Both the position numbers and the translations under genes were made by a program. Positions 15,861 through 64,000 of a DNA stretch of 64,000 nucleotides are shown here, piece after piece. Numbering within the stretch: position 1 is the first letter of the stretch; each line of letters opens with the position of its first letter. Source of the stretch: Moniliella sp. 'wahieum' (Eukaryota); assembly GCA_003971905.1 (NCBI GenBank), contig RSEE01000104.1, positions 62,001 through 126,000 of the forward strand. Direction: 5' to 3'. The notes under the pieces were generated by a model. The model was not told the origin of the DNA. It did not search any database and saw only the letters and a program-made list of their open reading frames with translations.

Positions 15861-15893
15861 CTTCAAGCTTCAAGCTTCAAGCTTCAAGCTTCA
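15861..15893. repeat. (CTTCAAG)n tandem repeat, ~4.7 units
   Basis: Directly visible. Confidence 0.9.
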
Positions 15894-30265: not shown

Positions 30266-32931
<2,666 letters not shown>

Positions 32932-33468
32932 CGGGGCCGGCGGTGGCGTGGACGGCCAAGAGAAGAAGGAGGCGCCCCGCCGCCTGAAAAAATAATCCAC
33001 GCCAACAAAATGGACCAGCAGCCTGGCCGGAGTTTACGTCACGTGATGCACCCGCTAGTAGTAGCCCCAACATCCAAACCACACTGAACAAGAGGTAGTA
33101 GTAGTGCGTTTGTCTGCTACGTAGCGCCCCGCTGGGTCGTGGTCCACAGTACTGCTTTGCATAGCCAACACCATTCCTTCCACACACACGCATGCACGAC
33201 ATCTTGCCCGCACACAAGATGCTGGCGGTGATGCAATCACGATATTTCTGGGCGACCAGGGGGAGATTGCGCGGGGGACAGGGGGGATATAACGGGCAAA
33301 AGAACGAAGAGACCAATCGAAATGCAGCTGACGAGCCAGAGCCACAGAAATGACAAAAAAAGAAGCAAACCAAAGAGAGGGTGACCAACCGTACCCGTCA
33401 CAGCCGCCGTCAAGGGGCCAGGGGAGGTAGGGGGGGAAGAAGGGGTGGGGAGGGGGGTATGCGCACGG

Positions 33469-34494: not shown

Positions 34495-34907
34495 GGTGGC
34501 GGCGGTGGGGAGGGATGGGCAAGGCAGGAGCGGGGAGGGGCAAGAGAAGGTGGTGTGTGAGTGGGAGGAGTGCGAGGGGCTGTGCGGGTGCGCCCACACT
34601 GCCCCTGCGCCTGCGCGGGTGATCGGCGGCGGGGGGGGCTGCTGCGGCGCGGCGCCAGTGTGTGGCGGCGGGCGCAGCGCCACTGTGGCGGCGGGCGAGC
34701 AGGTGGGCTGGGAAGCGCGGCGCGCGGCAGGCACAGGCGCGCACTCCCTAGCACAACCCACCTTCACTTGCAATGTTGCATCCCGTGACCCCGCCGCGTG
34801 ACCCCGAAAAGCCTGCGTACGTCAGCCGCCGCCGCCCCCCCCATGGCGCAGCGGCGGCAGAAAACACCCCCCCACCTCCTCCGCCCCCCCTCATCCAGCC
34901 CGCTACC

Positions 34908-42054: not shown

Positions 42055-43110
42055 GGGGGGGGTGGGGAGGGAGAGGCGAAGACGGAGGAGAAGGTGGCTG
42101 CGTCCTGCGGCAGGCCACGCGTCGTCTGCACGGGGGGGGGCGCTGAGGTAATGGCACGTGCCCGGGGCGACGGCGGCGGAGGTGAAATTGGCAGCGGGGC
42201 GGAATGGATGGGACGGGGATGGCAGGGCGTACGTAAGCAGCGGAGGGCGGGCTGGGAGCTGAGAAGCTGGGAGCTGAGACTGCACTGGGCTCAGCTGGGC
42301 GTGTGGCATGCGGGCAGCGTGTCTTCCCCACATGGGCGCGTGCCGGCCTGCCTTGAAGGGGGCAGGGGCAGCGGCCAGCGGCGCGCTGCGCAGGGCCAGT
42401 GTGCTGCGGCGCATGGCCTGGCGGTGCGTGTCTGGCCGGGCCAATGCGCTTGCCAGGAGCACCCGCGCCGGCGTGGAGCTACGTGGCACACTCGCCCGCG
42501 GCCGGGCCTGGCGCGCCCTGCAGCGATCGGCACGCCCGCGCAGCCACACCGTGCGTGCCGGCGCGGGCGAGCGAGCGAACAGCAACCCTAGCGGGGCTGC
42601 CAGCGCGTGCGGGCACGGCGGGTGTGTGTGCAGCACGCCCCAGCACAGGCGCCGTGGGGCGCTGCGGGCCGGCCGGGGACGGGGCGCGCCAGCTGGGCGG
42701 ACGCTGGCGCTGTGCCGCCCCCTGCACCAGCGGGGGGCGCAGCAGGCGGCGAGTGTGGGCGGAAAAGGCAGCCGGGGCGCCCAGCGCGTTTCTGCAGCGC
42801 TGCGTTTGGGGTTACTTTCTCTCTATCCACCCCCCATCCCCAGCCACACCATCCGCGCGCCTGGAGCACACGGCATTCATCCTCACCACCTCCATCTCCA
42901 TCCACGCCACCTCCATCTCCATCTCCATCTCCACCACCACCACCACCACCTCCTCCTCCGCCTCCTCCGCCTCCTCCGCCCCATATTTATGGCCCACACC
43001 TAACCCCCATCCAACCCCCAACCCACAAGTACGTCCCCCCCGCCCCAGCCCATCGCCCACACCTCCTAACCCCCCCCCCCAGTCTTTACCCACCGCTGGC
43101 CTCCCACGCC

Positions 43111-46100: not shown

Positions 46101-47123
46101 GAAGCACTTTGACCCGGAAGTCGATCCCGAGGCCGTGGCCGAGGCCGATGCCGATGCCGCGGCGAGAGCGTGTCCCGTCCGGTGCCGAGGCAAGCTGGAT
46201 GGCAGACCCCGAGCGGAGACGACCGGTACCTGTGGACGCGGATCCGGAAGCAGAAGAAGGGTGGGAGGACGAGTCGCATTTGATGCCGCGCGAGCTCTTT
46301 GGGGGTGCAGCGACGCCCGAGTTGAGTGTGACGGGCCCGACGTCGAGTCAGACGGAGGGCGACGAGACGCCGACACCCCTGGAGGAAGAACAAGAGGCGG
46401 TGTTTGACTAGGACAGGGGTACGACGGGTGGGAGACTGAGTCGACTCGTCCGAGACCAAGGCTAAGGAATTCGATCGCACCTGGTCCTTCTCCAGTGCGT
46501 CAAGCAAGACCCAGCGGAGATTGCGCGGCAACGCGAGATGGTGGCGCAAGCGCACGGCGGTAAAGTGCCATGCAACTTTACCCCTGGGCCCAAGCTGCCT
46601 GGGCACGACTTTTTCGGGATCAATACCGAGTTGGATATGCCGCCGTTGGCTCCTCGTTGCCAGTTTGGACTTGCCTCCTATCCCGCTCACGGGGCTGCCT
46701 GTCCGCCACGTTCGTCGCGCATCCAAGATGATGCGGGAGAACCTGGACGCGTCGACGAGCAAGATGGTAGCGCGCAACTCGTTGTTGGGCATGACCAGTT
46801 CGCGCTGTACGGTCTGAGTGGGTACTTTCTCGCCTCGGCCCACGTCGATGGTGGGTGCTGTAGCTGGCGCTGCGGCGCATGCGGCGCATTCCTGTGTGCC
46901 CAACCCACCTCGTTCCAATTTCACTTCGTCCACTGCACCAGGCAAGCACGCCAACGCCGATTTGCGCAACAGTACCGCCCAATCCTTCTCCAGTGCCTAC
47001 TCGAACGCTTTACCCGACGGACGCGCCGACGCGGCGCTGCAGACGCTGATCCAGGAACAAGGGGGCAACCCGACGTGGCAAGCACCGCTCGCTTGCCCGT
47101 CCGGCTTTACCCTGCGCGACTGA
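43111..47123 (+). CDS. Large low-complexity/coiled-coil hypothetical protein
   Basis: MADTPAAPDRQQRLAAAKK start, intron at ~43171-43224, S/R-rich and acidic segments, coiled coil at ~45000-45660. Continuity across frameshifts and the 3' end are inferred. Confidence 0.55.
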
Positions 47124-48959
47124 CGTTGGCGCCCGCCTGCGCCGCGGCTGGCGCGGGAGGCACGGGAGAAACTTGGCCCCCGCCGTCTGGTGCCCAGGGT
47201 AGGCGTGACCAACCCCCCTCGCTCTTCCCGGCACCAAGGGATACGCTCGACTTTGGTCCGGCCACCGAGGGCGTAGGTGCCTGGCCGCTCATCTGCATCT
47301 AACGTCAGTCTTGTGAAACGGACCTCCCCCCCCCTCTCCCTCTCCCTCTCCCTTCTTCCCCCTACCTCCTACTAGCTTCTACTAGCTCCCACTACCTTTC
47401 ACTGCATCCCCCCTCCCCCCCCCTCTCTCTCGATTGGTGTCTTTTTTTTTCTCTTGGTAACGCTCTCCTCTGCATCCTGATGTATTTTCTTCACTTCCCC
47501 CCCCCCCTCCCTCTTTACCGAAAACTTTTGTCCTCTCCCATCTGCCCATCTGCCCATTTTGTCCCTCTTCCCCCCCGCTGTGCTCTTGACTATTACCGTT
47601 TTCCCCGTTGCTCGTCCCCCCCGGGGTTTATCTCGGGTTACCTCCGTGGTTTACCTCTGGGCGAGCAGTAGTTACCGGACACAAGAAAGCTCTGCGCTCT
47701 TCATTTGATGTTTTTTTCCTTGATTTTTCTTATGGTTTTCTCTTGTGTTTCTCTTTGGGTGAAGGGGGGGGGGGGGGGGCCTTACTACATAACTTAACCT
47801 CGGTGCTTGTATCTGCCCTATGCCCACCTTCCCCCCTTCGTCCCCGCCTCTGGGTGCCCCACTCGCTTGGTGGTCCAATGGACCGACTCTGTTCCTGCTC
47901 CTGCTTCTGCTTCTGCTTGCATTTGGGTTACTTGGGTTGGTGTGTTCATGTGGTGGTGGCGGGGCCGATTCGGTACGGTAGGTTGGCAGCTGAGGCTGCG
48001 GTGGATAGGTGGCGAGGTCAGGTTCAATGTGGGGACGGCATTTGTTGGCATGGGGTGAGTCCGGAGGACGGGAGTAGTAGAAAATCGATGCAAGATCGAA
48101 TAACCGAACGCCTTAGTAGTACTCAGAACTCAGAGTAGTAGTGACGAGGACAGTAAAGCAATGCGGATGCCAGGTGCACCACCGCATGCCGAACAGAGAT
48201 AGCAAGCAGTATTGTGTTGTGCAACGACCGACGCGAACGACGAAAGAGGAGGTGGGTGGGCTATTCTATGTTCCTACGGAGGCGCGGGAAGGTGGCGGTG
48301 CCTACAGTAGCCTCGAACGGAGGGGAGTGGCAAACACGTATACGGACGAATCTAGGGACTACTAAGTAAGTACTAACGTGCACCGCTCGAACGTTGGCCG
48401 GCGCCTCACTGAGCTACGGTATCCAACGCGGGCGTGAAACAAGAACAAAAATCAAGGCATTGATGAATTAATCATTGCATCGGCATAGAATCGCTTTTGT
48501 TGTCGTCCAGTGGACGGACGAGAGCGAGAGAGGAGAAAACCTGCTCGAGTTGGGCGGGTGCCAGAGTGCAAGATGCGAGGTGGAAGCCCTGGGGCAGAAG
48601 GGAAGCATCAGAGGTGTGACAAGAAAAGGGGGGTCAGACACTCTGCGGTTGGCAGATGAACGGTGGGCAAGGTGGTGGAGGTGATGGGGCTACAAAACAA
48701 AGAGACGTTGGCCTCTGTGGGGCTGAGATTCTGAGAGGATCGCCCCAGTTGAAAGCCAAAAAAAAGCCAATTAACCCGTCAGAGTAATCGTGTGGGGTTT
48801 ATTGCAGTTTATATTATTGCAGCGCGCCAACTCCGCCTCGACTTCATTCCGCCGGGGGGTCTGCTGTTAATTTTTTTTTCTCAACGCCCGCCCCACCACA
48901 TCCATCCATCCATCGATCTTCCCTCCGCCCATCGAACCAGCTCCCCCCTCTCGCCCACC

Positions 48960-49292
48960 ATGCATTTGATGTACACGCTCGACAGCGTACGTGCCCCGCT
49001 TCTGCTGCTGCGTCCGCGCCTGCGTCTCTCTACTGACCCCGCCTCCGCTCCCAGAACGGCAAGCGCACCTACACGCTCAAGAAGGCCACGCCCGAGGGCG
49101 AGGTGACCAGAGCGCGCACCCAGGTACGTTTTTATTTTTTCTCTCTCCTGTCCCGCCGCCATGTGCCATTCACCTAACCTCTCTCCGCTCACCTCCTTTG
49201 CCTTCCATCCAGCCCGCTTCTCGCCGGACGACAAGTTCTCCCGGCAACGCGTGACGGTCAAGCGCCGCTTTGGTGTGCTGCCCACGAGCTGA
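48960..49292 (+). CDS. NOP10: H/ACA snoRNP subunit Nop10 (3 exons)
   Basis: MHLMYTLDS | [10 protein letters not shown]...SAHP | [26 protein letters not shown]. Introns at 48987-49054 and 49124-49212 with GTACGT donors and CTRAC branch sites. One apparent 1-nt deletion in exon 2. Confidence 0.96.
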
Positions 49293-49444
49293 GCAAGAGT
49301 AACTTGCAATGCACCATCTTTTCATGTCGTGATTGTCTTGGTTGTCGTGGTTGCCGTGGTGGTTTGGTTCGTTGGCGCTTGCGGGCCTAGCGCTGCGCAA
49401 CAGCGTCCAACAACTCAGCGGCACAACCAACTTGTCTTTTGGGG

Positions 49445-49934
49445 TCAGTCTGTGCTGTCGGTGCCTGCGTTGGCCTTGCTCCCGTTTCTCGGGGTCGACG
49501 TACGGGGAAAGGGGGACGGAGGAAGCAGGACGTACAAAGATGGTGTCGCCATCTTCAATGCCGGCACTGATGAGGGACTGTGTGCTGGCTCGCTGGGTGT
49601 GGTGTGGTATGGTGGGTTTGGGTCAGTGTCCTTCGTCTGCCCACCTGCCGGGGGGAGGGGGAGAGCACGCACAGGGTCTGGCCATAAAACACGAGCCGCT
49701 GCCAGCTGGGGTCAATGGACAGGCGGCAGGACAGCAAGGTCTTGAGGTCTACCACTGTAGCAGTCGGGGGGAGATAGATCTCATGGTCTGGGGCACAGTG
49801 TCCCACGTTCTACGGTCAACGTTCCGGCCGTGGCGGGCTATCGTAGCGGGGATGGTGCGCGTGGACGGAGGAGGGGAGGGGGACGCACCGATCCAGCGGG
49901 GGTCCTTGACAGTGACGGTGAGGGTGGTGCCCAT
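49445..49934 (-). CDS. Small ubiquitin-like domain protein
   Basis: PTATVVDLKTLLSCRLSIDPSWQRLVFYGQTL...GIEDGDTIFV follows the ubiquitin-fold pattern (TV..LK..I....P..QRL.F.G..L...GI.DG.TI). Confidence 0.6.
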
Positions 49935-50097
49935 GGCGAGACGCGAGACGCGGGCAGGGCAAGTGGCAGGAGGGGCGGATGGATGAGGGCGGGAAGGGGG
50001 AGGATGGGGGGGGGTGTATTTATAGTGTCTGATATCCTGGCGATTCCCCTGGTTCCCTAACAGGGGGCGCTATCAAGCAACACACGCAAGATAAACG

Positions 50098-50158
50098 GGT
50101 CGGCTTAGGCGTGGCGTTTCGCTGTCCCAGGCTTAAGCCCGGTCAATGCTATGGATGA
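50098..50158 (-). repeat. Dispersed ~60-bp repeat, diverged reverse-strand copy
   Basis: Reverse complement reads TCATCCATAGCATTGACCGGGCTTAAGCCTGGGACAGCGAAACGCCACGCCTAAGCCGACC. Confidence 0.7.
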
Positions 50159-50702
50159 AGAGTGTGGGATGCGATACAAGTAGGCTGCGCCAGACCCGCG
50201 ACGCAGACGCATCGCAGACGCCCTGGAGAGGGTTTGGATCGGTTGCAGCCGCCTTGGTTTGATTGGAGACGCCTGGGATCGATTGATTGCAGACGCTGGA
50301 TCGCTGGGACAGGCGCCGGAGAAGCGTGGCAGGCGTCGGCTGGGCGGAGGAGCAGGTGCGGCCCGAGGGAGACCGATGCTTGATGATCATCCACCAGCGC
50401 GCCCACACTCGTCTGCTGCCGCCGCACGCAGACTGGCGCCTGCCCCTTCGGCCAGAAGAGTGCGGCTGCACAGGGTTGGTTACGTACGCAGCACACTGGC
50501 GCTTGGCGGCGAGCACACACACGGCGTCTCCCCTGGCGCATGCCGAGTCCCTCGCAGCTCGCGGCTCGTCATTGCCTGGGGTGTCCCCATCCGCCTCGTT
50601 GTGTCCTCGCCATCCCCATCCTCATCCCCCTCGACGGCACCCACCTCCTCGCCATCGCCATCCCCACCCTCCTCCTCCTTCTCCACCGCACCCCCACCGC
50701 CC

Positions 50703-51996
50703 ATGGCCCGTGGGGGCTGCACTACGACGGCAGTGTCCCCAGCCCGCCCTGCGTGCTGGGCGACATCAGCTACGCCGACATGGCCTCCCTCCTCCCCCAC
50801 CTCAACACCACCGACCCCGTCATGGCCGCCTATGCGCGCGTCGTGTACACTGCGCTGGCCTACGAGCGGGCCGGGGCCAGTGCACCGCTGTCAAGGCCCT
50901 GGCCGACGTGCGTCTTGCCGTGACCTACATCATCTACACCTCCCTGTGCACGGTGCTGTTTCTGCTCCTCACCACTGTCCTGCTCAAGGGCGGCCTGGAG
51001 AGCGCCAAGCGCCGCTCGCCCATCGTCTGGCTGCTCGCTGCCTCCATCCTCCTCGGCCTTGTCGCCTCTGTCTTTGACACGGTCTTCTGGACCGTCGAGA
51101 TGGTCAATGCGCGCATCCCGTCCCAGGTCGCCAATGGCCTGTACGTGGTGGAAGACCTGATGCTCTTTCTTGTGCCTTGGGTTTTGTCTGGGCGCTGATC
51201 CTCCGCCTGGCTGTCTTCTGGCCCCCAGCTCTGTTTGGGCGCAAGAAACAGTTGCTGGTCATCTTGCCTCCCTCGGTACTGCAGTGTGCCAGCCTGGCCT
51301 GCTACGGCCTCGTCCTGCGCAGCGCCACCACAGCGACAGCCGCATTGCCTCTGACTTCTCGCCCCAAGTCAGCCAGCCCAAACCTGCGAGCATGGTGCTG
51401 GGTCAGCACCCGTCTGCCGTCCGCATGCGCTGGGACCACGCGCACTACGCGACGTTTGTCACTGCGCTTCTCTATGTCAACGTGGGCTTATCACGACAAT
51501 GGTGGCGGATGCGCTCCCACCGTGGCACAGGCACCTTGGCACAACTGCGTCGTGGATTGGGAAAGCGCCTGATCCCATCTTACGTCTTGCTTTGCCACCT
51601 ACCATGGCCACCGCTGCGCCGACCTCCTTGGCGCGGGAAGAGGAAGCGCGGCTCTACCGTTCGCTCCGACCGCAACGAAGGGTCGGGCTGTGGTGGACGT
51701 TGATTCGCACACTGCATTTTCTCGCGTTTGGGTTCTGGGTGCCGACAGCTACAGCGGTAGCTAGTTGGGTCGTGCTCGCTACCCAGAAACTGGAGGTGGC
51801 CATGTACCTCGAAGCGGCGTTGGTGTATGTTTCCCCTTGGCGGGCATCGTGGCCTGCTTGGGCGCCACATCCCGATTCTTGGATCGAGAAAACCACTACT
51901 ACCCCTCGGCCACAACCACGTTTGTTACGCCCCCCGAGGAAGGGAAGAGTCCAAGTACGATCCTGCAGAGATAGGAACCGGAGCCGGAGCCGGAGC

Positions 51997-52028
<32 letters not shown>

Positions 52029-52269
52029 GGCAGGCACACGAAAACGAGGGCATACCCAAGCCCATGGGACCGAGGTGGTATCTCTAGCGGACTTTTTGAT
52101 GGACTCACCTCCCCTGACCGACTCATTTTCTTCCCCCTGTGCTGGGCCGCCTTCGCCTCCGCTCCAGGACAGGTGCGAGAGCCGAACCGGTGGCTTTTCC
52201 CCTGCCGCGGTCTGGTCCGAGTGCGCTTCCGACGCACGAAGCGTCAAGGGAGCCGGGGTAAGGGGGTAA
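50703..52269 (+). CDS. Multi-pass membrane protein of unknown family (about 6-7 TM)
   Basis: Hydrophobic helices VTYIIYTSLCTVLFLLL, IVWLLAASILLGLVA, LMLFLVPWVL-WALILRL, LLVILPP, FVTALLY, FLAFGFWVPTA and MYLEAALVYV. Start uncertain. Confidence 0.6.
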
Positions 52270-54037
52270 GGGGCAGGGTTAAGGAAAGAAAAGAAAAGCC
52301 AAAAAAAGGGGGGGGGGGGCTTCGGTCCTCCATGCCATGCCTTGCCTATGTTGTCGCACTATGTACCTTACCTTACCTTATCTTGCCTTACCTTGCCTCA
52401 CTGGCTCACCTTACCTCTCCGCACCATGCTAACCACGCTCACGTTGCCCCCCGCCTCGTTCCAAGCTTGCCCCTTCCCCTTTTGCTCTCTTATCTACTGC
52501 TCTGGCCTCGCGGATGCGAGGTCCCAATCGTTGTACTTGTGCGTTGGACCGATCGATGGTGATACCCTTAATGGACGGTGGTGATGGTGGTGGTGGGCGG
52601 TAGTAGTAGTAGTGGGAGTGGGAGTGGATGGGTGAAATGGCGGAGGGGAACTTCAATAGTGCGTTTGGGCTCCTGTGGTCTTACACTACACATGGGTGGG
52701 GCGGGCGGGGGTGTGTGACAGGTGACACAACAGCTTGAAGCTTATAAGGCCTAAGGCCCAAAGGGGGTAGTAGGGGTCGGTAATGGGTTGGTGTCCAATA
52801 CTGGTTCCTGACCCGTCTGTCCCGCTTGCTGTAGCCCAGGCGCCCCAGGGCGATCTGTGGTATTCCGAGTGGGAGAGAAACTCGGGGGTAACGCAGGATG
52901 GATCGCCGGCGAATGCCACGGAAGGAGGGGGGGCGAGGGAGCAGGTGTGCGTGGATTGGGTGGGCGAGAAGCGGGGTTTGGTCGATCGTTGCGTGCAAAA
53001 GCGTTGAACGTTGGACGTTGAACGTTGATGGCGAATGGCAGCAAGCGTACCCAGGCGCGTCTTGCCAGTGTGTGGCGCGGGATGGGTGGGTGTCGAGTGG
53101 AGCGGAGGCGAGGCGATGGACGCTGTGTGGCGACCAAGCCACAGCAGCGGGTGGGTGCGTGTGCGGCTGGCAGAGGCGGGAGGACTGCGGGGATGTGGAA
53201 CGTTCGGGCGGGCGGCGGCGGGCGTTACGGTGGATGGGATGATGTGTTGGCCGCCGTCGAAGCACTAACACGGGCAAGCAGGTGGCTGTCGACAAGCACA
53301 CCCATCCCCCGCCACGCTGGCCCCGCCGCTCCCCTCGGTTGCGGCGTCGGTGGGGCGCCCGCGTCTGGGATGGGCCGGGGGGACGCCCTGAGCCGGCGCT
53401 GATCCACGCCCACTGCCCGCCCGCCACGTTCTCCGCCCCCGATCGCCGTCGCCGCTGGGCGGTTATGGGCAGCAGAGGCCTCCGCTTCCCGTCGCTCTCG
53501 CCTCCCTCCTCTTCCTTTCCTTCTTCTTCCCCCCCTCCTCCACCTCTCCCTCCCCCCTCTCCCTTCTCTTCTTTGTGGCCAGTTCCCCAGCCCGTCGCCC
53601 GACCCTTGCGCACGCTCCTTTTTGCATTTTTGCCTTCTTCCCCCTCCACACGCGTCCTTGCACCGGCCGCAGACGGTGCCCACGCCTCGTTACCCGCCCC
53701 AGCAGCAACTTCCTTCGTATGTCCGCGCCTCACGCCTTCCCCTGGCCTGAACAGGACGGTACGTGTGCCCCTCTCCTCTCCCTCCCGCCCCGACGGCAAC
53801 GCCACATCGGATCGGCCATGGCCTGTGTCCCCTCCCAGGGGCGGGCGGGCTGCTTGCTTGTGGGCCGACGGTTGGCTGTGGTGGCAGAACCCCGACGGTG
53901 GATTAGATTCGCCGCGTCGAGAGGGACCGCGGACGGAGGGCTCGTATTCCAGTGGCTACTTTACTAACCCCGCCGTGTCTGTCTGTCTGTCTGTCTGTCT
54001 GCTCTTCTGGCCCGGCTGTGCAATGTCTCGACGATGC

Positions 54038-57000
54038 ATGATGACCACCATGGATGACCCCCGCATCGCACCCGCCCTCTCTCCGCCGCTCCGATCGGGA
54101 AATCTGTCGACGGGAACGGGGCCACCACCTCGATCGCCGCTGTTGCTTGTCCCCGCCGGTGCTTGTCCCGCCATGGTTGGGCCCTGCCCGCCGTCGGTCG
54201 CGATGGCGTGTGTGGGCCTCCGCCTCCGCCTCCGCCTCCGTCACCACGCCCCCTTGGCGCTCCAGCCCGCCCCGCCATGCTCAACCCCCCGCCCGCCATG
54301 CCGGACGACCGCCGCTCGGTGCGCCGCCCTGCGCCCTTGTCCCTTGTCCCCCACGCCAGCGCAGCGCGCAGCCTCACCCGCCCCCCCCGCCTCCTCCGAG
54401 TTTCCCCTCTCGCCCCTCTCGCCTCTTGACCGCACCCCGCACGCGCGGCTCGGATCCGGATTCGACCCCCTCTGCCCTGGACGCTCCCCGACACGCCCGA
54501 CACGCCCTCGACCCACGCAGCCCCTCCCTCGGCTGCCCGCCCGGCGGCGGCGGCGTCGGTGTCCGGCGCAGCCACGGGCGTTGGTATCGGGCTTGGGCTT
54601 GGCTTCCTCCCCACCCTCCGGCCCCCGGACCTGGACCGTCGCCTGGATCGGGACCGTGCGGACCATCGTGCGCCCACCTCGGCGGCGCCTTTCTTCCCGC
54701 CCTCGGCTTATCCTCCCCCCACAACCACACCCACACCCACACCCACTCGCACGAAGCGGAAGCGTCCGAGGCAAACGCACGCGAGATTCACTTACCGCAC
54801 GGCATCTGTGCCGGACTTCCACGCTGGCCGTGCCAGTCCCGCCGCCGCACGGTTGCCCGCCTCCCAGCACGCTTCGCACTTTGGCTTGGCACGTTTCCCT
54901 CCGCACACGGTGCCCCGTGGTCTAGGTTCGCCCCTGATCAACCCGCCCCGTTCGGCACCTTTTAGCACCACGGCATTTTCCCCCTCTTTGCCGTCCCTCC
55001 CTTCCTCCTCCTTCCCCCCGCCTACCTCCTCCCCTCGCTCCCCATCCGCGCCGACTTGCACTTCAAGCCGTTTGGCGCACATGCGTCTCCACACCTCCTC
55101 AGCCACCCAAGCCTCCTTGGCCATCCCAGCCACCCGAACCATGCCAACCACCTCAACAACCCGAGCAACCTAAGCAACCCGAGCAACCTAAGCAACCCGA
55201 GTAACCTAAGCAACCTAAGCCACCCGAGTAACCTAAGCAACCTGAACAACCCGAGCAACCTAAGCAATCCGAGCAACCTCAGCAACCTCAACAATCCGAT
55301 CCACTCGAATCATCCCACCTACCCCAACCGCCTGTGCTCCTACGCCTCCTCGCCCGAAATGGAAGTGGACTCACCCACGTTCACGCCACTCCCTTCCCAC
55401 CCCCTACTACGAGAGACGACGACCGCGCCAGGGACGGGCACGCTGGGCCGCTGCACCCTTGTGCGTATCTTATCTTTTGGCCCTGTGTGGGCAGCCCAAG
55501 TGGGCAAGGAGGAAACCGTGTTGTTTTCACGCCAACAGGATATGGTACGTTCCCCCCCTCCCCACCGCGCCGTGCACGTAACCAATTGAATTGGCATGGT
55601 CATCCGTTCTAACTCCTTCTTTTCCAGCTCATCTTTGGTGGTCGGAACGGGTTCAACCCGCGCCATCCACTTGGCTTTGTGCGCACGTTGCACAGCTTTG
55701 AGCGATGGGAAAAGATTGTGGATACGGGAAACGTAGGAGCGTTCCGATTCCAGCGGGGCGACTGGTTTTGTGACTTGTGCGGGGAAAAAATGTGGCGGTG
55801 GCGCTTGTCGTGTCGGAAATGCAAGACGGAGCATGCGGCAACGCGGTTGCAGGATCGGAACCAGATCGGGGTCAGCTTGACCCCGGCCGCACTGGCAACT
55901 GCTTGGGAACGGGTCAAACGGACGGAACAGGCCATGCTGTCCGCTACTCTCTCGGCTCTTCACACTATTCCTTCCCTTCCCTTGTCTTTGTCCTTGCCCT
56001 TGCCCTTGCCCCTGCCCAGCCCGGCCGTCTCTACCCCACCGCTGGCTCAGACGACCGACGTCCGCCCGCCTCAGCACTCCCATCCGTCCCATCCGTCCCA
56101 TCCGTCCCATCCGTCCCATCCGTCCCATCCGTCCCATCCGTCCCATCCGTCCCATCCGTCCCATCCGTCCCATCCGTCCCATCCGTCCCATCCGTCCCAT
56201 CCGTCCCATCCGTCCCATCCGTCCCATCCGTCACTTGCTTCTCTCCCCCCTCGACCGGGACGGGCTGCCGGACTGGGCATGCCGTCCGGGGTACTATCTC
56301 CCTTGGCACTTGACGTGCGTTCGCCTGCGCCATTGCTCCAACCCGTTTCGTCCCGCTGTACCCTTCGCCGCTGGCCGAGTATGTAGGGTACGGACCGGAG
56401 CCCAGTCGTCGTCCGAGCTTTGTCCCGAGCCCAAGCCCTACCCTTGGCCCCATCCCCACGGCACCTGCCACGCCCCTGGCCCAGACGGACCTCGCCTCCC
56501 ACCCATCTCCCACCCCAACCCAGCACGACCGCACCAACGGGACCAATGGGACCAACGGGACTAATGGGACCAACGGAACTAATGGGACCAACGGGACTAA
56601 TGGGACCAACGGGACTGATGCCCCTACCACCCCGCCGCGTCCCTCCCCACCAACCCGTTCTCCCACCCCACGCCAACCTCCACCTCGAACGTGACCGTGG
56701 CCACGACGTCGAACGTCAATCCGTCCTCGCATCCCAGCCCGAATCTGAATCTGAGTCTGAGTCTGAGCCCGAACCTTCGTCTAAGTCCGAACCTGTGTCT
56801 GAGCCCGAACCTGGGTCTGAGTCCCAACCTGAACACGAATGCGAACCTGAATCCGAATGCGCACCCGAACCAGAATCTGAACCCAAGTCTGAATGCGACT
56901 GCGACCGTGACTGCGACGACGCTGGATCCGGACCTGGTTTACGTCCCGGACCAGCCGAGCCCTAGCACCAACCCACCGCCCGCACTCCGTTCCCACCTCA

Positions 57001-57095
57001 GCCCGTTGACCCAGATGTCTCCCCTCCTCGCTCACCTTCCTCTCCGCCCGAGCGTGCGTGATACGCTTCACCCTACCAAGGGGTTTGACTCCTAA
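54038..57095 (+). CDS. Low-complexity protein with a RanBP2-type zinc finger and several tandem peptide repeats
   Basis: QRGDWFCDLCGEKMWRWRLSCRKC (W-x-C-x2-C-x10-C-x2-C), plus (NLSNPS)n, (SHP)17, (MGPTGL)n and (PNL)n tracts. Boundaries are inferred across frameshifts. Confidence 0.55.
56078..56230. repeat. Perfect 9-bp minisatellite (TCCCATCCG) x17
   Basis: Directly visible. Confidence 0.95.
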
Positions 57096-57216
57096 GTTCA
57101 GCGTGTAGCTGGGATTCTCCTGCCCCCCTGACTTTCTGAACATGTTCTCTTTTTGACCGTCCCAGTAATCGTATGGCGACACTGACACCAGTACATATTG
57201 CTGGTCTTTTAGCTGA

Positions 57217-57281
57217 TGCGTCCATATCATTGACAGAGCCTAAGGCTGGGACAGGGGGAATGCTACGTCTAAACCGAACCG
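57217..57281 (+). repeat. Dispersed ~60-bp repeat, copy next to the STE3 3' end
   Basis: TGCGTCCATATCATTGACAGAGCCTAAGGCTGGGACAGGGGGAATGCTACGTCTAAACCGAACC; related copies at ~62986, ~50098 (reverse) and ~15538 (partial). Confidence 0.85.
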
Positions 57282-57683
57282 TTCATCTTGCGGGGGTTAC
57301 CGGTTACAGACCTGGAAGCGCCCCCAGGTTAAAAGTAGCTTATTGAGTACACCATCGATCATCTGCATCATCAATAGTATCAGACGCAGATCACATGCAT
57401 CATGTATTGTTGCCACGTCACCCACCGGTGCCTTGCCTGATTCGTAGATGGGAAAGCTAGACGCTGGAGTTGCCGCGCGCAGGCCAGCAGGACACGGGTA
57501 CATTACTGTCCCACTGCTTGCTCTATCCTCTTCGCCACCACTCTCCTTCCCCCTTCCCCTTCTTCTCGCTCACCTCGTTACTTGATTACTACTCGCTGAT
57601 CGTCTGTGGTTTAGAGACTAGGTGTCTCCAGGTCAGAGCCTTCACGCGTCGCTAAAGTATGCATCATGTGCATCATGCAATGG

Positions 57684-59107
57684 TCAATTGATCTCGGTTG
57701 TAGAATGGATAAGCACTTGGTCCAGTCCCTTGCCTCTCAATTGGGGGGACGAGCATTCCATGTCACCAGCAGCTGTGGCAAATGAATAGCCGTGGTTGTT
57801 CCCCCTTGGTGCATCCAGCATTGACCCACCCGCAACTCCCACGTTTTGCGAAGAGGTAACCTGTTCCTGCCCACATGTGTAAAAGGTAAGCACCACTGGT
57901 GGGAGGCTGAACTCGATCGCCTTTGACCACAAATGTTGTGCTCTGGATAGATTAGTACCAATGACATACCGAGGATGGATTGCGGTTGAAAAGTTGAACC
58001 CAAAAGTAGATATCTTCTTTGTACCGCCGAACGAGGAAACTCTTGACCGCCTTGTACCAATCCCTGTACGCTTGAACCTGCTCCCTGGTGAATCCGTATG
58101 TAAAGAATATCATGAAAGGTACACCAAAGCGAGAAGCAGCGGTAGCATTTCTCCAGACCTTATCGTTGTCGTACACCCAATATGAGACGTTGTAGTCTTC
58201 ATGTTCAAATCCCACGAAACTTCATGAGAATGGGGAATTTAAGTCAGCCTCAAGCTACTGTTACACAAATAATGAATGTACAGTACTCACCGTAATGGTG
58301 CAAGGGCTGCTTCGCCCTTTTCGAGAACTGAAAAATGACCCATATAAGGTACAAAATGGCCACCGTCAATCCGAAAACCAGGAGTCGAACGAAGGCTGCT
58401 GGTTTGACTGCTCCCTTCGTACCCTTGATCAAAGAATCGCGTCTTATCGTGCTCCACAGTCGAAATGTACGCCAACTGGTGAACGCTATTACAGGACAAA
58501 TATTGGTTAATATTCCTGTGAGATATTAGTTCGACGGATCAGAGGGAGAGCGTACTTACCGGCATACCCAGCCGCTACCACAGGCAAAATCAGCAACCAT
58601 ATGAAATGAACGAAGATCCCGGGAACAGTGAAGTCGATAGGGGAGGCGCAGCCACTTGGTCCAAGGATGTCGCTGCGGTGCCCCTGCGACACGTATTGCA
58701 CATCCGGTGAGAACAGTCGGTATACCAACGCCAATACATATATTGATAATGAGAGATCGCTTAGTCTTGGCATGGTTGGTTGACAGGATGGCCAAAATCT
58801 CTCTAAACAAAATCACCTCAGTGCAGGATAACCCAGATAGAGACCACTGTTCGATTGGCAACGATATATCGCACCAATCAATGGTCGTGGACGGTCTGAG
58901 TGTTACCGCCGATAGCATTTTGACATTGGAATATTTCCAGATGTTGGTCGTCATGATCGTGCTTGACACGATCGAGTCGACGTAAAAGCAGTACATCGGT
59001 ACGCATAGATGCCCGCCCTTCTTGAGTTGCACAGGGAGGAGAAGAGCGACCAAAACAATGCTCAAGACACCGAGTGTACCTACGATGCCAGAGTATGCCG
59101 TTACCAT
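57684..59107 (-). CDS. STE3: STE3-type lipopeptide pheromone receptor (Pra-like GPCR); 3' end uncertain (57952 or 57684)
   Basis: STE3 hallmarks in order: NIW...WCDIS, ICIGVGIP, YVSQGHRSDI...GC, FVRLLVFG, SWD.EHEDY and MIFFTYGFTRE. ATG at 59107. Introns at 58516-58559 and ~58220-58290. A few 1-nt indels. Confidence 0.93.
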
Positions 59108-59582
59108 GGCTGGTGTTTGAGGGGGATCGAAAGACTGAGTTGGAAAGAAGAGGTGAAAATGATAAAAGAATGTGGGAGGGCCATGTATATGTACTTCGGG
59201 ATTACTAAAGTACTATAGTGCTACTTATATAATAGGAGACGATCGGACGATGCATAACGATATGGGGAAGATTATCGATACTAACGGTCGGTGTTGTCAC
59301 GCGTGACTCATTCATTAATCATGCAGAAACAATTTTACTTACACATATTGACAGAAAGGCTTCACGCTTGAGAAGCTTGAAGCTTGAAAGCACACAAAAG
59401 GAGGCAAACGTTGTATATTGTCTTTGGCCTCCCATAAAGGCTGCCATAAGGCCGGGTCGCGTGCACAGAGAAATGAGCGTAGCCAGAAGCAACACCCCCA
59501 GAACGGGTTTAGCTGTGTAACAGTGAGTTTAATCGAAGGAACAATACCGGAAGGGGCGATGTTGGGTGACACAAAAAAGGAC

Positions 59583-59591
59583 ACAAAGGGA
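59583..59591 (+). promoter_or_regulatory. Pheromone response element (ACAAAGGGA, Prf1-type HMG site)
   Basis: Exact match to the Ustilago maydis PRE consensus, within the divergent receptor-pheromone promoter. Near-matches at ~59394 (ACAAAAGGA) and ~59571. TATA-like boxes at ~59226 (receptor side) and ~59768 (pheromone side). Confidence 0.7.
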
Positions 59592-59629
59592 ATGATGCAA
59601 AAGGGGGGGGAGACCAGAATAAAGCCGCA

Positions 59630-60245
59630 CCTGCCGATACCCCGCCTTCCAGCAACATACATATCGGTACGTCAGCAAAACTAGCGTGGAAAAGGGGCCG
59701 GGGGGTTCCGGCTCAAGAGATAGGAAACAGACGATAGTATACTCTGCTAGGGATGGTGTGCATTGCTATTTAAGAACAGCTCATTTCCACAATGCCGGAC
59801 GTACATCACCACTACCCTCACCCACTCTTCTCTCTCTCATCAGCCACTGCCGACGCGCACCAGCACACCGTATCTTCCATCAAGATGTCTCTTTCACCAT
59901 GTTCACCATCCCTACCAACACGATGGCGGCCGAGCCTATTGGCCCTGACCAGGACCCGAGTATGTAACGCAGCTCCGTTTGGTCTGATTCGACCGCCGCG
60001 CCCGTATGTTGCTAACACTGTGCTTTTTGCACGCCAGCTGGTTCCATGACTGGCTGTGTCATTGCCTAGAGGGGCTTTCTGGTAAAGCCCTCCCAATGCC
60101 ACGGCAGGTCAATCCCCAATCCTCCCTCCACCGCTGTTAGGCCGCTTAGGCATATCAGCAGTTCTCCTTGGCATCCCTACGGTTGATGCTCATGTCTGCA
60201 CCTGTTCGGCCTGCAGGGATACTGGGAGGCATGCACCAGGAGGTG
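59630..60245 (+). repeat. Direct repeat A (pheromone cassette), partner at 63380-64000
   Basis: Near-identical to the partner from ~59700 onward; more diverged over the first ~70 bp. Confidence 0.95.
59885..60069 (+). CDS. mfa: Mating pheromone precursor, copy 1 (2 exons, CAAX = CVIA)
   Basis: Exon 1 ends at 59959; intron 59960-60037 (GTATGT...GCTAAC...CAG); exon 2 60038-60069 encodes TGSMTGCVIA*. One T is missing after the first ATG relative to copy 2; there is an in-frame ATG at 59899. Confidence 0.88.
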
Positions 60246-60316
60246 TGTTTGTCTTTCAGTCTCTTCTAGCGTGGCCCCGGTATTTGATCACTTCTCTTTT
60301 ACCTCATATATTGGAA

Positions 60317-60348
60317 CCCCCCCCCCCCCCCCCCCCCCCCCCTCCCCC
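60317..60348. repeat. Poly-C tract (26 C + T + 5 C)
   Basis: Directly visible. Confidence 0.9.
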
Positions 60349-60639
60349 ATAGGAGAGAGCAGACAGTTGGTGTGTTTGTTATAGACCAGAGAGCAGGTAG
60401 TTGTTAGTGTATTGCATTGCACATGAACTACAGAGGATAGAGAATATTCCTGCCCGCCAGGAAGGAATATTGCATGGAACAAACCAGAAGGTTCCGGACT
60501 TGGGCTATACCGGCGCCATCACTACACCAGTGTGGCGTCACATCTCCACAGCCCAAGGACGGTACCGACGGTTTTCCTCAAGCGCTCGAGCTCAATCCCC
60601 ACCAAAACCTAGGCACCGGAGTGGCCAGGTGGGGGGAGA

Positions 60640-62940
60640 TCAGGAATAGGACCCAATTCGCGGTCACAGCGGCTCCAGGACCCTGTATGCCAGGCTCTTG
60701 GTGTGGAGGTCGGAGACGGTGTCCACACCTTTTATGGACACAGGAGTAACAATCCCTGCTCGGTTGCTCTCACGTATATCGGTGTAGAAGCGGGCAAGGT
60801 GGCGCGTCCCTTTGGCAGAACCCCAATATTCGCGCAGGCGACTGCCACGGATGAGTCGCACCGAAGCGCGAAAGGAATACCTGTGGAAAAGCACAAGCTC
60901 CACCAACAGTTCACGCAGCGCCACATAGCATAAGCGACACCCTACTCCCTGCCACATACTCCGAGTCGCCCGTGCTGCGTCCCACCACGCGCTGCTTGGC
61001 CGAGCGCCAGCCAACCAAGGCTCCAAAAACGTAGACTGCCAGGCCAGAGGTGGCCTTGCTGTCCCACCTTTCGTTGTAGCTGCTGTCGGTTGTAAAGTTC
61101 CAGCGGTGGGCCAACGGTAGAGTAGGATGGAGTCGGAGCGCTAGACCAGCAGTGTGACCCAAGTAGCCCCATACCCGGCCAAAGCCGTCCAGTGTTGGGG
61201 ACCAGGGTCAGCACAGAATTGTCCAAGTGAGCGCACAGCAAATCAATGTCCGGGCGGGTGCAGGATGCGATCCATCCTAGTGTTCTCACTTCACTGGCGA
61301 AGCGATGTGTCTCCTCCTCCGGACACTGTCGCTCGCCTTCAGCGCGGGGGACAAGCTGAGTCCCCGTAAGAAGAGGTTGACGATAAGGTGGCTCGCCCTC
61401 ACGTCCAAATCTTCTCGTGCTCGCCTTAATATAGTCCTCCTGAGAGAAATCTCCAGGTCGGAAGCGAAACGCACATTCAGAAAGTATGCTAACGGACCGC
61501 CGTCCTTGACATCCACATGTTGGCGTAGGCCCCATAAGAAGTTGTAGTATGCCTCAGCAGATGAGGCAGCGACGCAAGCATCATCCACCCATATACAGAG
61601 GATGATCACCTCTTCACCGCGTACACGGGAAACACGCACCGGTCGGCGACAGTGGAGGTGCAGCCGATGAGTTGGAGCAACCGTAAGTTCTCATACCATC
61701 TCCGCGAGCTCTGCTTCAGGCCATACGGGGCTTTCTTGAGTAGCCACACCTTACCATCTTCCCGCCGAAGCCCTTTGGCGGTTCCATGTACACGTATTCG
61801 CTTGGCTGGACGTCGGCATAAAGAAAGCGGACACCACATCGCAAGTGAAAACGGGTCAGTCAAGACGCAGAGCAAGAACGAGAAACGGTTAGCAGTGCCA
61901 TGAAGCTTACAGTGGCGGCAGATAACGTAGCTGGATCATAGTCAAGGCCCGGGCGTTGAAGGAAGTCCTGGCCCACCCACCGGGTGCGCCGCCGAACTAG
62001 TCAACCGGCCTCGGTTTTGTAATGGCACCGGACAAAGCGGCCCCTCGACACCATGGCATCACTCCCTTTCGCCGGCCGCTGCACGCTCTCCCCAATCCCC
62101 CCCGGTCTTCCAGATTCTTCACCTCATTCCGGAAAGCTGCTCCCACTCGCTTGCACCCGCACCTCGTCGGGCTTCATACTCATTGCGGGATCCACCCACA
62201 GAGGGGGGACATCCCCACCATTGTCCCCACCATTGTCCCCACCATTTCCCACTGTGGCACAGCCGCGGAAATGGGATGGGACGGTTGATATGCTTCGTCC
62301 TAGTTTTGCCCTGATAGGGCCCAAAAATTTGGACCAACGACTGATTGCGCAAATCAGCCTGTAGGGCCGCCTGCCGTCTCGGACGCTCCGACATTGTGGT
62401 CCGGTACCGCAGCATCGGCGCGGTCGGCTCCAACTCCGCAATCGTGGCTGATGGACCTGGGGCACAGGTCCGTAGTTGGTGTCATCACCCCATCGTAACA
62501 TATCCCTCACCCAGGTGAGCCGCCACTGCGATACTGCCCACTCGCCCACTAGCCACTTGCTTTGGCCCACGTCGTATCCAGGAGGGCCCGAGGAGCACCA
62601 CGGCACGACAAGCGATTCTCCGATCCTCTTCATTCACGAGCGCATAGGCCACTGCACCAAAGCGATGAAGGTACCCTGGCGCAGCTGGTTTCTCCAGGTA
62701 ACGCGTGGCAGGATTCGGAGGGCCAAGCTTGCCGATACTCATGTTGCGTATATACGCTGCGGCCTCAATGGCGAGCGGCCAAAGGTCCAGCCACCGCTGC
62801 GATTCACAGCAGTTTCAACGGCGGTGTTGAACGTACTAGGAAGCGAATCTTGGATACGACCGTAGACAAAGGTGTCACGACGCTGGGGTTGAACGTTGAC
62901 AACTTGTGCGCGATTACCTGATGCACCTGCAGTGCTCCCA
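60640..62940 (-). mobile_element. Degenerate, 5'-truncated Ty1/copia retrotransposon (post-integrase region, RT, RNase H)
   Basis: LHRFGAVAY (post-integrase); LLKKAPYGLKQSSRRWY and LCIWVDD (RT); TRPDI; TDSSY...ATSG...WRSAKQRVVGRSTGDSEYVA and SDLHTKSL (RNase H). This is the copia domain order. No gag and no LTR pair were found. Confidence 0.9.
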
Positions 62941-62985
62941 CTCGGTTGTGTTTCTGTTCTGTCACATGTCAGGTTCTCTCTAAGT

Positions 62986-63054
62986 TGCGTCCACTGCATA
63001 TCATTGGCAGAGCTTAAGGCTGGGACAGGGGAGTCGCTACGTCTAAACCGAACC
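62986..63054 (+). repeat. Dispersed ~60-bp repeat, copy upstream of pheromone copy 2
   Basis: ...CATATCATTGGCAGAGCTTAAGGCTGGGACAGGGGAGTCGCTACGTCTAAACCGAACC. Confidence 0.85.
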
Positions 63055-63379
63055 TGTGAAAACATATAGAATCGCAGCAACCGGTAACCAGTAACCTCTC
63101 TTCAAGCCTCAGCTTCTGGCTCTTAATTGAACCCTGTGTGAAACATAGGTCAGGTGGAACAGCGAGCAATGTACACAAGGGAATTATTCTGCGACCCAAC
63201 AGCAGCCAACAGTCATATTGAAGGAAGGATATGTAGCTGAAAACATTGGATTGCCGTATGAAAATATGGCTCAAGGCTTTCACTGCCAGTGGGGGTGAAC
63301 GAGATTCGCTCCACCCACCCCGAACAGAGAGGGCGGACCTTCCGAAAGAGATTTGGAACTTCCGAAAGAGGGAGCCAAC

Positions 63380-64000
63380 TTGCCGATACACCCCGCGTTC
63401 GAGAGCAACGTAGACATCGGTACGTCACAGAAAAACTGGTGTGTAAAAGGGGCCGCGGGGGTTCCGGCTCAAGAGATAGGAAACAGACGATAGTATACTC
63501 TGCTAGGGACGGTGCATTGCTATTTAAGAACAGCTCATTTTCCACAATGCCGGACGTACATCACCACTACCCTCACCCACTCTTCTCTCTCCTCATCAGC
63601 CACTGCCGACGCGCACCAGCACACCGTATCTTCCATCAAGATGTCTCTTTTCACCATGTTCACCATCCCTACCAACACGATGGCGGCCGAGCCTATTGGC
63701 CCTGACCAGGACCCGAGTATGTAACGCAGCTCCGTTTGGTCTGATTCGCCGCCGGCCCGTATGTTGCTAACACTGTGCTTTTTGCACGCCCAGCTGGTTC
63801 CATGACTGGCTGTGTCATTGCCTAGAGGGGCTTTCTGGTAAAGCCCTCCCAATGCCACGGCAGGTCAATCCCCAATCCTCCCTCCACCGCTGTTAGGCCG
63901 CTTAGGCATATCAGCAGTTCTCCTTGGCATCCCTACGGTTGATGCTCATGTCTGCACCTGTTCGGCCCGCAGGGATACTGGGAGGCATGCACCAGGATGT
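63380..64000 (+). repeat. Direct repeat B (pheromone cassette), runs to window end
   Basis: Near-identical to 59630-60245. Confidence 0.95.
63641..63825 (+). CDS. mfa: Mating pheromone precursor, copy 2 (35 aa, intact): MSLFTMFTIPTNTMAAEPIGPDQDPTGSMTGCVIA
   Basis: Exon 1 63641-63716, intron 63717-63793, exon 2 63794-63825. The spliced length of 108 nt is in frame and ends in CAAX (CVIA) then TAG. Confidence 0.92.

Follow-up and report, generated by a model that had tools for sequence, protein, structure and literature searches.

The last part of the 64,000-nucleotide stretch of DNA analysed here (the window) carries an STE3 receptor gene that is physically adjoined by genes for short CaaX precursors. 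We read this cluster, with a probability of roughly 0.78, as the pheromone/receptor (P/R, or 'a') mating-type genes of a smut-related (Ustilaginomycotina) fungus: one receptor gene of the Pra/STE3 type together with an Mfa-type precursor gene in two near-identical copies, one of which diverges from the receptor with a 777-bp promoter in between, with the frame breaks taken as assembly errors. Apart from the receptor (57952–59107), the window has no STE3-like region. The receptor ATG, at 59107 on the minus strand, is separated by 777 bp from the closest pheromone copy, which is on the plus strand and has its first ATG at 59885; the second copy is 3.76 kb further on, past a decayed copia-like element. 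The kind of locus is well known, and what is new is this example, whose receptor is unusually divergent and whose pheromone gene is concealed by its intron. An earlier note on this DNA had described an STE3 receptor on the minus strand and, ~780 bp away on the plus strand, a two-exon gene with a 35-aa spliced product ending in CVIA, and had taken the pair for the P/R locus of a basidiomycete. The Pfam scores of two receptor pieces, the measured spacing, the canonical intron predicted in the second copy and the similarity of the MYO2 gene in the window to Ustilaginomycotina all uphold that core of the reading, a STE3/Pra-type receptor beside a CaaX precursor gene, while the note's hint of decay is not supported and its claim of sexual capacity is overstated.

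The membership of the receptor in the STE3 family is supported by profile and pairwise matches. The piece at 58556–59107 matched Pfam PF02076 (STE3) over profile positions 2-127 with 29.3 bits (E 6.6e-7), and the piece at 58507–58812, in another frame, matched positions 123-181 with 36.2 bits (E 5e-9). Both reach the gathering score of 29.2, the weaker one by just 0.1 bit, and neither matched any other Pfam family at E ≤ 1. Together they cover positions 2-181 of the 292 in the profile, with a low summed score of ~65 bits; the ORFs with receptor exons 2 and 3 (the TM6-TM7 half) had no Pfam match at E ≤ 1, and the match falls short of the whole domain. Using hhalign, the profile of receptor exon 1 was aligned with the Trametes cubensis pheromone receptor P0124 at 97.1% probability (E 5.9e-11, 105 columns), with the WCDIS and QGHR core blocks kept between the two. 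In blastp, the receptor model matched P0124 at E 6e-10 (30% identity over 115 aa) and P0001, a 184-aa fragment, at E 6e-43. These two were the only relatives returned by the word-indexed and full searches together. For example, phmmer with the first 140 aa of the receptor against 1.84 billion representative proteins gave three hits; P0001 is a true relative, and the other two are repeat proteins. When longer relatives of the same 140 aa were sought with a word index, none of 1159 candidates gave a hit; the word-indexed profile search returned P0124 as its one hit, and a PDB sequence search with the receptor profile returned nothing relevant. Language-model look-alikes were unspecific: the receptor piece drew generic 7TM fragments, and an STE3 cluster came no higher than rank 21 (score 0.83); second for P0001 was a cluster with STE3 in 37% of its members (score 0.90). 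Judged from these matches, the receptor is a real and very divergent member of the STE3 family. Since a single relative was detected among the 1.84 billion representative proteins, the receptor may sit on a deep, almost unsampled STE3 branch. This forms part of a more specific proposal that we make tentatively and consider rather doubtful as a whole, in which the DNA comes from an Exobasidiomycetes-like lineage with undescribed mating genes and the pheromone gene is split by its intron within the region coding for the mature peptide.

The receptor gene was modelled on the minus strand in three exons (57952–59107), with a conceptual product of 339 aa that carries an X at one frame break. Exon 1 (58560–59107) has one extra base near 58708, which divides it into frame A (59107–58709) and frame B (58707–58560); P0001 crosses this point uninterrupted and with unchanged spacing. 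Removal of the predicted intron 1 (58516–58559; 44 nt, GTAAGT..CTAAT..CAG) puts the receptor back in frame into the TM5-TM6 segment. The P0001 ORF ends just past the position of the YAG of this intron, and we infer that its stop there marks a conserved intron. Exon 2 (58291–58515), assigned by translation and hydropathy, would encode the third intracellular loop and TM6. Intron 2 (58197–58290; GTGAGT..CTGAC.., 94 nt with the second AG) was placed by frame bookkeeping; use of the first AG (58221–58220) would require one further 1-nt correction. Exon 3 (57952–58196), with TM7, a short tail and a TAA stop at 57952–57954, weakly matches P0124 residues 284-309 at a position collinear with the other matches (tblastn, E 4.1 alone). 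A Kyte-Doolittle scan of the receptor found six strong hydrophobic helices; a seventh (..FGVPFMIFF..) was weaker and stayed under the threshold used. The C-terminal tail may extend towards 57684. A putative third intron of 27 nt (57955–57929; GTATGT, TACTAAT, CAG), which would lengthen the tail, was too short to accept.

The two pheromone precursor genes are both on the plus strand. Copy 1 (59885–60069) consists of exon 1 at 59885–59959, a 78-nt intron at 59960–60037 and exon 2 at 60038–60069, and copy 2 (63641–63825) of exon 1 at 63641–63716, a 77-nt intron at 63717–63793 and exon 2 at 63794–63825. The copy 2 intron has GTATGT, then GCTAAC, then CAG, and the predicted spliced product is 35 aa long (30 aa counted from the second ATG) and ends in CVIA. 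In copy 1, the first ATG is closely followed by a T-run that lacks 1 nt relative to copy 2, which puts this ATG out of frame, and an in-frame ATG at 59899 would give a product of 30 aa. The pheromone intron (GTATGT..CTAAC..CAG) agrees with the MYO2 intron of the window (GTACGT..CTGAC..CAG). The Ustilago mfa genes are not known to carry introns, and the intron sets the present gene apart from them. The predicted product is short, within about 30-60 aa, and has a CaaX-stop with a farnesylation-type X. A short precursor with a Cys-aliphatic-aliphatic-X end is shared with the fungal a-factor-type lipopeptide pheromones, and CVIA is the ending of both the S. cerevisiae a-factor and the S. pombe M-factor precursors.

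The earlier note had held that ORF calling missed this gene because the intron splits it. Our search for an unspliced alternative agrees: none of the 13 CaaX-stop ends found in six frames across the whole window belongs to a Met-initiated ORF of 25-70 aa. The predicted precursor has a hydrophobic N-terminus and an acidic middle, a general build that fits the 31 Ustilaginales precursors compiled by Kellner et al. 2011 (PMC3248468, Fig. S4). The mature part, compared by eye, has no likeness to any of those 31, in line with the note's remark that it did not recognise the pheromone sequence, and no occurrence of the exon-2 motif was found in the literature. The accessible portions of the literature on intron-bearing pheromone genes in basidiomycetes and Malassezia (including PMC8686365 and PMC9296135) make no statement either way.

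The receptor and copy 1 share a divergent promoter region of 777 bp (59108–59884, 47.7% GC). It contains one exact Ustilago-type (Prf1-type) pheromone response element, ACAAAGGGA, at 59583–59591 on the plus strand, 302 bp upstream of copy 1, and a one-mismatch copy at 59394–59402. The consensus was taken from the Fig. 3 legend of PMC3248468, and the sections of that paper available to us place ACAAAGGGA elements within the Ustilaginaceae a locus as well. Across the window there are two exact matches against 0.33 expected, and 14 against 11.25 with one mismatch allowed, which is no enrichment; copy 2 has no ACAAAGGGA element inside its repeat. The element may be taken as a regulatory hint, and a thin one.

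Both pheromone copies lie in a direct repeat on the plus strand. The first repeat copy (59629–60244) comprises the pheromone gene and 256 bp upstream, with a TATA-like TATTTAAG at 59766–59773, and the second (63378–64000) reaches the window end. By blastn the two are 95.5% identical over 627 columns, with 15 gap columns, and a hand count on the alignment gave 8 indel events and 3 substitutions in the core. Between the pheromone copies is a decayed Ty1/copia-like retroelement remnant (60660–62900, minus strand; extent by eye from ORF translations). Its RVT_2 matches are weak, in profile order and in two frames (61606–61935, E 0.00098; 61286–61690, E 0.0024), and both are under the gathering score. 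GC3 is 0.58 in the receptor and 0.74 in MYO2, and the GC content is 48% in the locus region and 60% in the window, values that are compatible with a long-standing low-recombination region, but only suggestive of one. The low GC, the transposon remnants and the distance to MYO2, 55 kb away, might reflect an expanded region of this kind.

The affinity of the host can be derived from MYO2, a fragment of which had its best named matches in Tilletiaria anomala (74%), Tilletia horrida (71%) and Jaminaea rosea (71%), within a range of 69-74% for Tilletiaria, Tilletia and Jaminaea together. By this similarity the host is a basidiomycete and Ustilaginomycotina-like, in the same subphylum as the Ustilaginaceae. 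MYO2 also provides a measure of assembly quality. All five junctions (5/5) between its HSPs, over ~5 kb, change frame with at most 6 nt between them. The assembly thus has about one indel error per kb, and apparent pseudogenes in it are not to be trusted.

This error rate bears directly on whether the cluster might be what remains of a P/R locus in an asexual lineage, with real breaks near 58708 and in copy 1, an invading retroelement and genes in decay. The earlier note had pointed in that direction by setting an 'intact copy' against a broken one and by speaking of a 'frameshift-corrected' receptor. Decay would account for the frame break in receptor exon 1, a possible second frame conflict at intron 2, the lost frame of the first ATG in copy 1, the copia-like remnant between the pheromone copies, and a receptor that is very divergent and has no Pfam match in its C-terminal half. 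However, at the error density of MYO2, roughly one break is expected in a 1-kb receptor gene from errors alone. Outside that single break the receptor pieces are free of in-frame stops, copy 2 is intact, copy 1 retains an in-frame ATG and all splice signals, and the 8 indels against 3 substitutions between the repeat copies are a signature of sequencing error. The density of these indels is far above the MYO2-based error rate, which counts against the error reading, and the frame breaks in the receptor and copy 1 may be real. Because an essential gene, MYO2, has five gap-free frame changes, assembly errors are the simplest explanation, and the receptor break and the 1-nt loss in copy 1 are probably errors and not decay. 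A relic locus is therefore unlikely.

The P/R reading also draws on comparison with known systems. In ascomycetes the a-factor-type genes are unlinked to the receptor gene, and the tight linkage seen here is the basidiomycete pattern. As far as the available parts of the sources go, the same arrangement has been described for smuts, rusts and Exobasidium (PMC3248468, PMC5295586, PMC7766764). For example, the a locus of Ustilago maydis and other Ustilaginaceae combines a receptor of the STE3 type with short CaaX precursors of 35-42 aa, encoded by one or two genes (PMC3248468, in part). In contrast to the Ustilaginaceae, the two pheromone copies here are near-identical and do not represent two specificities, no lga2/rga2-like or border genes were recognised in Pfam scans of the window ORFs, and the receptor is too divergent to be placed among Pra1/2/3. 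The Puccinia STE3.2/mfa2 pair is likewise divergent, with the genes 500-700 bp apart, and its 33-aa CaaX precursor was overlooked by gene prediction; Puccinia belongs to another subphylum and its receptors have five introns, compared with two here (PMC5295586, in the sections consulted). The portions consulted of a survey of MAT a loci in 16 non-model Ustilaginomycotina genomes (Kijpornyongpan and Aime 2020; PMC7766764) report that the pheromone gene, being short, is often unannotated, that it is duplicated in Exobasidium vaccinii, and that MAT a synteny is not conserved outside the Ustilaginales. The divergent mfa/receptor layout a few hundred bp apart and the duplicated or unannotated mfa gene are thus already described in the parts of PMC5295586 and PMC7766764 that we cite.

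According to the same portions of PMC7766764, Rpn10 and CAF1 are frequent neighbours of the receptor gene. Neither of them, nor homeodomain, lga2/rga2-like or other mating genes, was found in the Pfam scans of the window ORFs. These scans took in 89 of the 95 ORFs of at least 200 aa (all but five microsatellite-region ORFs and the receptor ORF), 124 of the 181 ORFs of 110-199 aa (all but those over explained genes and the locus) and 62 of the 64 ORFs of 65-109 aa in 42.5–57.7 kb, plus 13 long ORFs that were re-scanned. Rpn9/PSMD13 lies 15 kb from the receptor; that the neighbours differ counts against the P/R reading. The 15 kb left of the receptor showed no recognisable domain; genes in that part may be masked by introns and frameshift errors.

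Another potential explanation is that the genes are functional and have no mating-type role, either with a locus that is the same in all strains (homothallic/autocrine) or with a receptor that is a non-mating STE3-like paralogue. The window represents one haplotype only, and this, together with a receptor too divergent for a Pra allele class, would suit this explanation. Non-mating STE3-like paralogues occur mainly in Agaricomycetes, however, which counts against it, as does the presence of a single STE3-like gene in the window. The receptor and pheromone genes are as tightly paired as in the mating-type a loci described in the consulted parts of PMC3248468 and PMC5295586, and the low GC and GC3 with the transposon remnants fit reduced recombination, if weakly. 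We consider a cluster outside mating type improbable.

A generic scan for two-exon CaaX genes on both strands of the window, designed after the candidate was seen, returned exactly two loci, pheromone copies 1 and 2; the same type of scan on 60 Markov shuffles gave a mean of 0.067 per window, with one hit in 4 of the 60 and two hits in none. That only the receptor is real and the CaaX frame arose by chance in a non-coding repeat that was duplicated is very improbable: the gene is predicted from sequence alone, the identity of two copies within one repeat is uninformative on coding selection and the scan that singles them out came after the fact, but a start, donor, branch point, acceptor, phase, length and farnesylation-type CaaX coincide 777 bp from the STE3 start, the scan expectation of 0.067 per 64 kb corresponds to about 0.002 within 2 kb of the receptor, and the window has no other candidate pheromone gene.

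If the cluster is a P/R locus, its mode of action can be proposed from better-studied fungi. An Ala at the X position of a CaaX box directs farnesyltransferase, and for this reason we propose that the precursor would be farnesylated on the CaaX Cys, by analogy with a-factor/Mfa biogenesis. The last three residues would then be cut off and the Cys carboxymethylated, and the N-terminus would be trimmed, for which the acidic ..DQDP.. stretch is a candidate cleavage site. The peptide could be exported via a Ste6-type transporter, and it would activate, in a compatible partner, the receptor allele present there and not the one linked to its own gene. By analogy with Ustilago signalling, the receptor would act through a G protein and MAPK cascade on an HMG factor, which would bind the response element and raise the expression of both genes.

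The presence of P/R genes does not prove sex, and the earlier note went too far in taking them to indicate sexual capacity. For example, MAT a genes are retained in species without observed mating, such as Malassezia (PMC7766764, in the portions consulted). The locus leaves the understanding of how P/R loci work unchanged. It does offer a worked example of an intron-split pheromone gene that escapes both automatic annotation and simple ORF scans. Were such genes common, they would go undetected in CaaX scans based on ORFs, and this could, if true, explain the 'missing' pheromone genes reported for some Ustilaginomycotina genomes. For the organism itself, the receptor and pheromone of an apparently unsampled smut relative provide a handle on whether the fungus mates.

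The receptor gene of the candidate P/R ('a') mating-type locus lies on the minus strand (57952-59107), and its translation from the ATG at 59107 matches Pfam STE3 (pheromone A receptor). The match falls into two adjoining pieces in different frames, of 29.3 bits (profile positions 2-127) and 36.2 bits (123-181) against a curated cut-off of 29.2 bits, so the STE3 profile check proposed in the earlier note came out in its favor. Neither piece matched any other Pfam family at E<=1, and the TM6-TM7 half had no Pfam match. The frame switches at about 58708, where the only close relative found, the 184-aa fragment P0001, continues uninterrupted with identical spacing; the break can thus be ascribed to one surplus base in the window. 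Further downstream are a 44-nt intron (58559-58516, with GTAAGT, CTAAT and CAG) and a second intron for which there are two options, either 94 nt using the second AG, or the first AG together with one further 1-nt correction. The conceptual product has 339 aa, with an X at the frame break, and its hydropathy profile shows six strong hydrophobic segments, the seventh being weaker. The stop codon is at 57952-57954, and the tail may be longer, extending towards 57684. This is the only STE3-like gene in the window.

Relatives of the receptor are few. A phmmer search with its first 140 aa against 1.84 billion representative proteins returned one true relative, P0001 (E 2e-16, 36% identity; 44% against the whole of exon 1). 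The sole match in a word-indexed profile search was P0124, a Trametes cubensis pheromone receptor (E 6e-5), which hhalign aligned to the exon-1 profile over 105 columns with 97.1% probability and with the WCDIS and QGHR blocks kept. The receptor's look-alikes under a language model were generic 7TM fragments. Judged by these comparisons, the first two thirds of the predicted protein can be assigned securely to STE3, although the receptor is an outlier within the family.

On the opposite strand, 777 bp from the receptor ATG, begins the first of two near-identical, two-exon pheromone precursor genes. Copy 1 (59885-60069) consists of exon 1 at 59885-59959, a 78-nt intron at 59960-60037 and exon 2 at 60038-60069; copy 2 (63641-63825), also on the plus strand, has exon 1 at 63641-63716, a 77-nt intron at 63717-63793 and exon 2 at 63794-63825. 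The predicted spliced product of copy 2 is 35 aa, beginning MSLF and terminating GCVIA. The T-run after the first ATG of copy 1 is one T short, and therefore only the second ATG, at 59899, is in frame, giving 30 aa. The earlier note had seen both the receptor and the divergent CaaX gene correctly and had given the locus its correct name; it also stated that the intron conceals the pheromone from ORF calls. This is borne out, as unspliced exon 1 reads into a stop and the window's 13 CaaX-stop ends all lack a Met-initiated ORF of 25-70 aa. A splice-aware scan of both strands for an ATG exon, a canonical intron and a short exon ending in CaaX-stop recovered only the two loci. In Markov shuffles, 0.067 matches were expected per window (one match in 4 of 60, two in 0 of 60), a figure that is indicative only, since the scan was written after the candidate had been seen. 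The splice signals (GTATGT, GCTAAC, CAG) agree with those of the intron interrupting the P-loop codons of the myosin V gene MYO2 in the window (GTACGT, CTGAC, CAG).

Each pheromone gene is carried on one copy of a direct repeat, at 59629-60244 and at 63378-64000, where the window ends; the two copies are 95.5% identical in an alignment of 627 columns that includes 15 gap columns. Between the copies is a decayed, minus-strand copia-like element, recognized by weak RVT_2 matches that lie in two frames, follow the order of the profile and both score below the gathering threshold. GC content is 48% in the receptor region, 60% in the window and 63% in the 15 kb left of the receptor; GC3 is 0.58 for the receptor versus 0.74 for MYO2. 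The shared promoter has an exact sequence match at 59583-59591 to ACAAAGGGA, which the Fig. 3 legend of Kellner et al. 2011 (PMC3248468) gives as the pheromone response element marked on a loci of Ustilaginales, and a one-mismatch copy at 59394-59402. Exact matches number 2 in the window against 0.33 expected; no enrichment is seen once a single mismatch is tolerated. Several repeats were noted nearby. About 32 C residues form a homopolymer at the repeat edge (60317-60348), 250 bp downstream of copy 1. A 58-nt direct repeat (90% identity; 57223-57280, beyond the receptor 3' end, and 62997-63054, upstream of copy 2) flanks the receptor together with copy 1 and may be a piece of a transposon or LTR. 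Dense tandem repeats at 55150-56885, just beyond the receptor 3' end, have periods of 9, 18, 27 and 36, all multiples of three, and include a stretch at 56078-56232 in which TCCCATCCG occurs 17 times without a mismatch; they may be a repetitive coding region or microsatellites only.

The frame breaks can be read against MYO2 (1683-6637, minus strand), which has one real 93-nt intron at about 5985-5893. Searching the window with two myosin V relatives (tblastn) gave five gap-free, frame-changing junctions, at about 4527, 3350, 3215, 2878 and 2128, and the alignment to one of these relatives, P0005, changes frame without a gap at all five. Since five frameshifts are incompatible with an essential motor gene, the assembly seems to contain roughly one indel error per kb, which makes any "pseudogene" in the window suspect. 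At this rate, a receptor gene of 1 kb would be expected to have one break. The core of the pheromone repeats differs by 8 indel events versus 3 substitutions (counted on the alignment), as expected from sequencing error and not from divergence; indels between the repeats are denser than the MYO2 rate, so some of these differences may be real. The damage to the receptor and copy 1 implied in the earlier note is, given the five MYO2 frame changes, most likely an assembly artefact. Elsewhere, an MDM31/MDM32-family gene (26561-29965, minus strand) is split among five or more ORFs that differ in frame, and two Pfam pieces meet at about 29011-29017 without space for an intron, probably another error-induced frameshift. 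GC drops to about 50-52% in the block at 8000-17000, where ORFs of 200 aa or more are absent from 8556 to 17133 and pieces of a DUF3533-family gene occur in two frames (11486-12293); decay or assembly errors may have affected this block too. The 15 kb beside the receptor (42500-57700, 63% GC) has many long ORFs and no Pfam domain except a weak ubiquitin-like match at 49558-49809; parts resemble real coding sequence, such as a membrane-protein-like end at about 50900-51198. Ordinary housekeeping genes encode an AAA ATPase (31729-33033), a transportin-3/importin-13-like protein (34752-36702) and the proteasome lid subunit Rpn9/PSMD13 (40505-42478).

A 368-aa myosin V motor piece (4518-5624, minus strand) was used to place the host. 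Its best named relatives are from Tilletiaria anomala (74%), Tilletia horrida and Jaminaea rosea (71%), followed by Thecaphora, Violaceomyces and Parajaminaea (69%) and Ustilago (67%), with Pucciniomycotina and Agaricomycotina lower (62-66%); two further proteins reach 84-85%. No match was identical, so the host itself is not represented among the proteins searched. This ranking, from one gene fragment, places the host in Ustilaginomycotina, apparently nearest Exobasidiomycetes. MYO2 is one gene inside the Cryptococcus MAT locus. Here about 51 kb separate it from the receptor gene, and its presence in the window may be coincidence.

Comparable layouts are described for several basidiomycetes. 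According to PMC3248468, Ustilaginales a loci have one receptor, no more than two precursor genes (35-42 aa), and response elements. The precursor in the window is built like those in Fig. S4 of that paper, whereas its mature part has no similarity to them, in keeping with the earlier note's remark that the pheromone sequence was unfamiliar; the exon-2 motif likewise had no match in the literature searched. For Puccinia, the relevant section of PMC5295586 has mfa2 and STE3.2 divergently transcribed 500-700 bp apart, the 33-aa pheromone gene having been overlooked by prediction. In the survey of 16 Ustilaginomycotina genomes in PMC7766764, annotations often lacked the pheromone gene, two species yielded none, and Exobasidium vaccinii has it in duplicate. 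Pheromone genes also needed manual addition in Cryptococcus depauperatus (excerpt of PMC9296135), and a CaaX gene adjoins STE3 in Wallemia (excerpt of PMC6738226). The architecture of the locus is therefore textbook. The literature searched yielded no statement for or against intron-bearing pheromone genes in Ustilaginomycotina.

The gene structures, family assignment, CaaX end, pairing and duplication, and one response-element match were shown by the sequence analysis; the working of the locus is reconstructed from established a-factor and Mfa biology. With Ala as the X of the CaaX, the precursor Cys would be farnesylated, -VIA taken off and the Cys carboxymethylated. The N-terminus would be trimmed, the peptide exported by an ABC transporter and recognized by the receptor of a compatible partner, and MAPK signalling to an HMG factor would feed back on the shared promoter. 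The suggestion of sexual capacity goes too far, as gene presence alone does not show mating. The locus is of modest interest in three respects: its receptor is an outlier, its pheromone sequence is new, and the pheromone gene is concealed by an intron.
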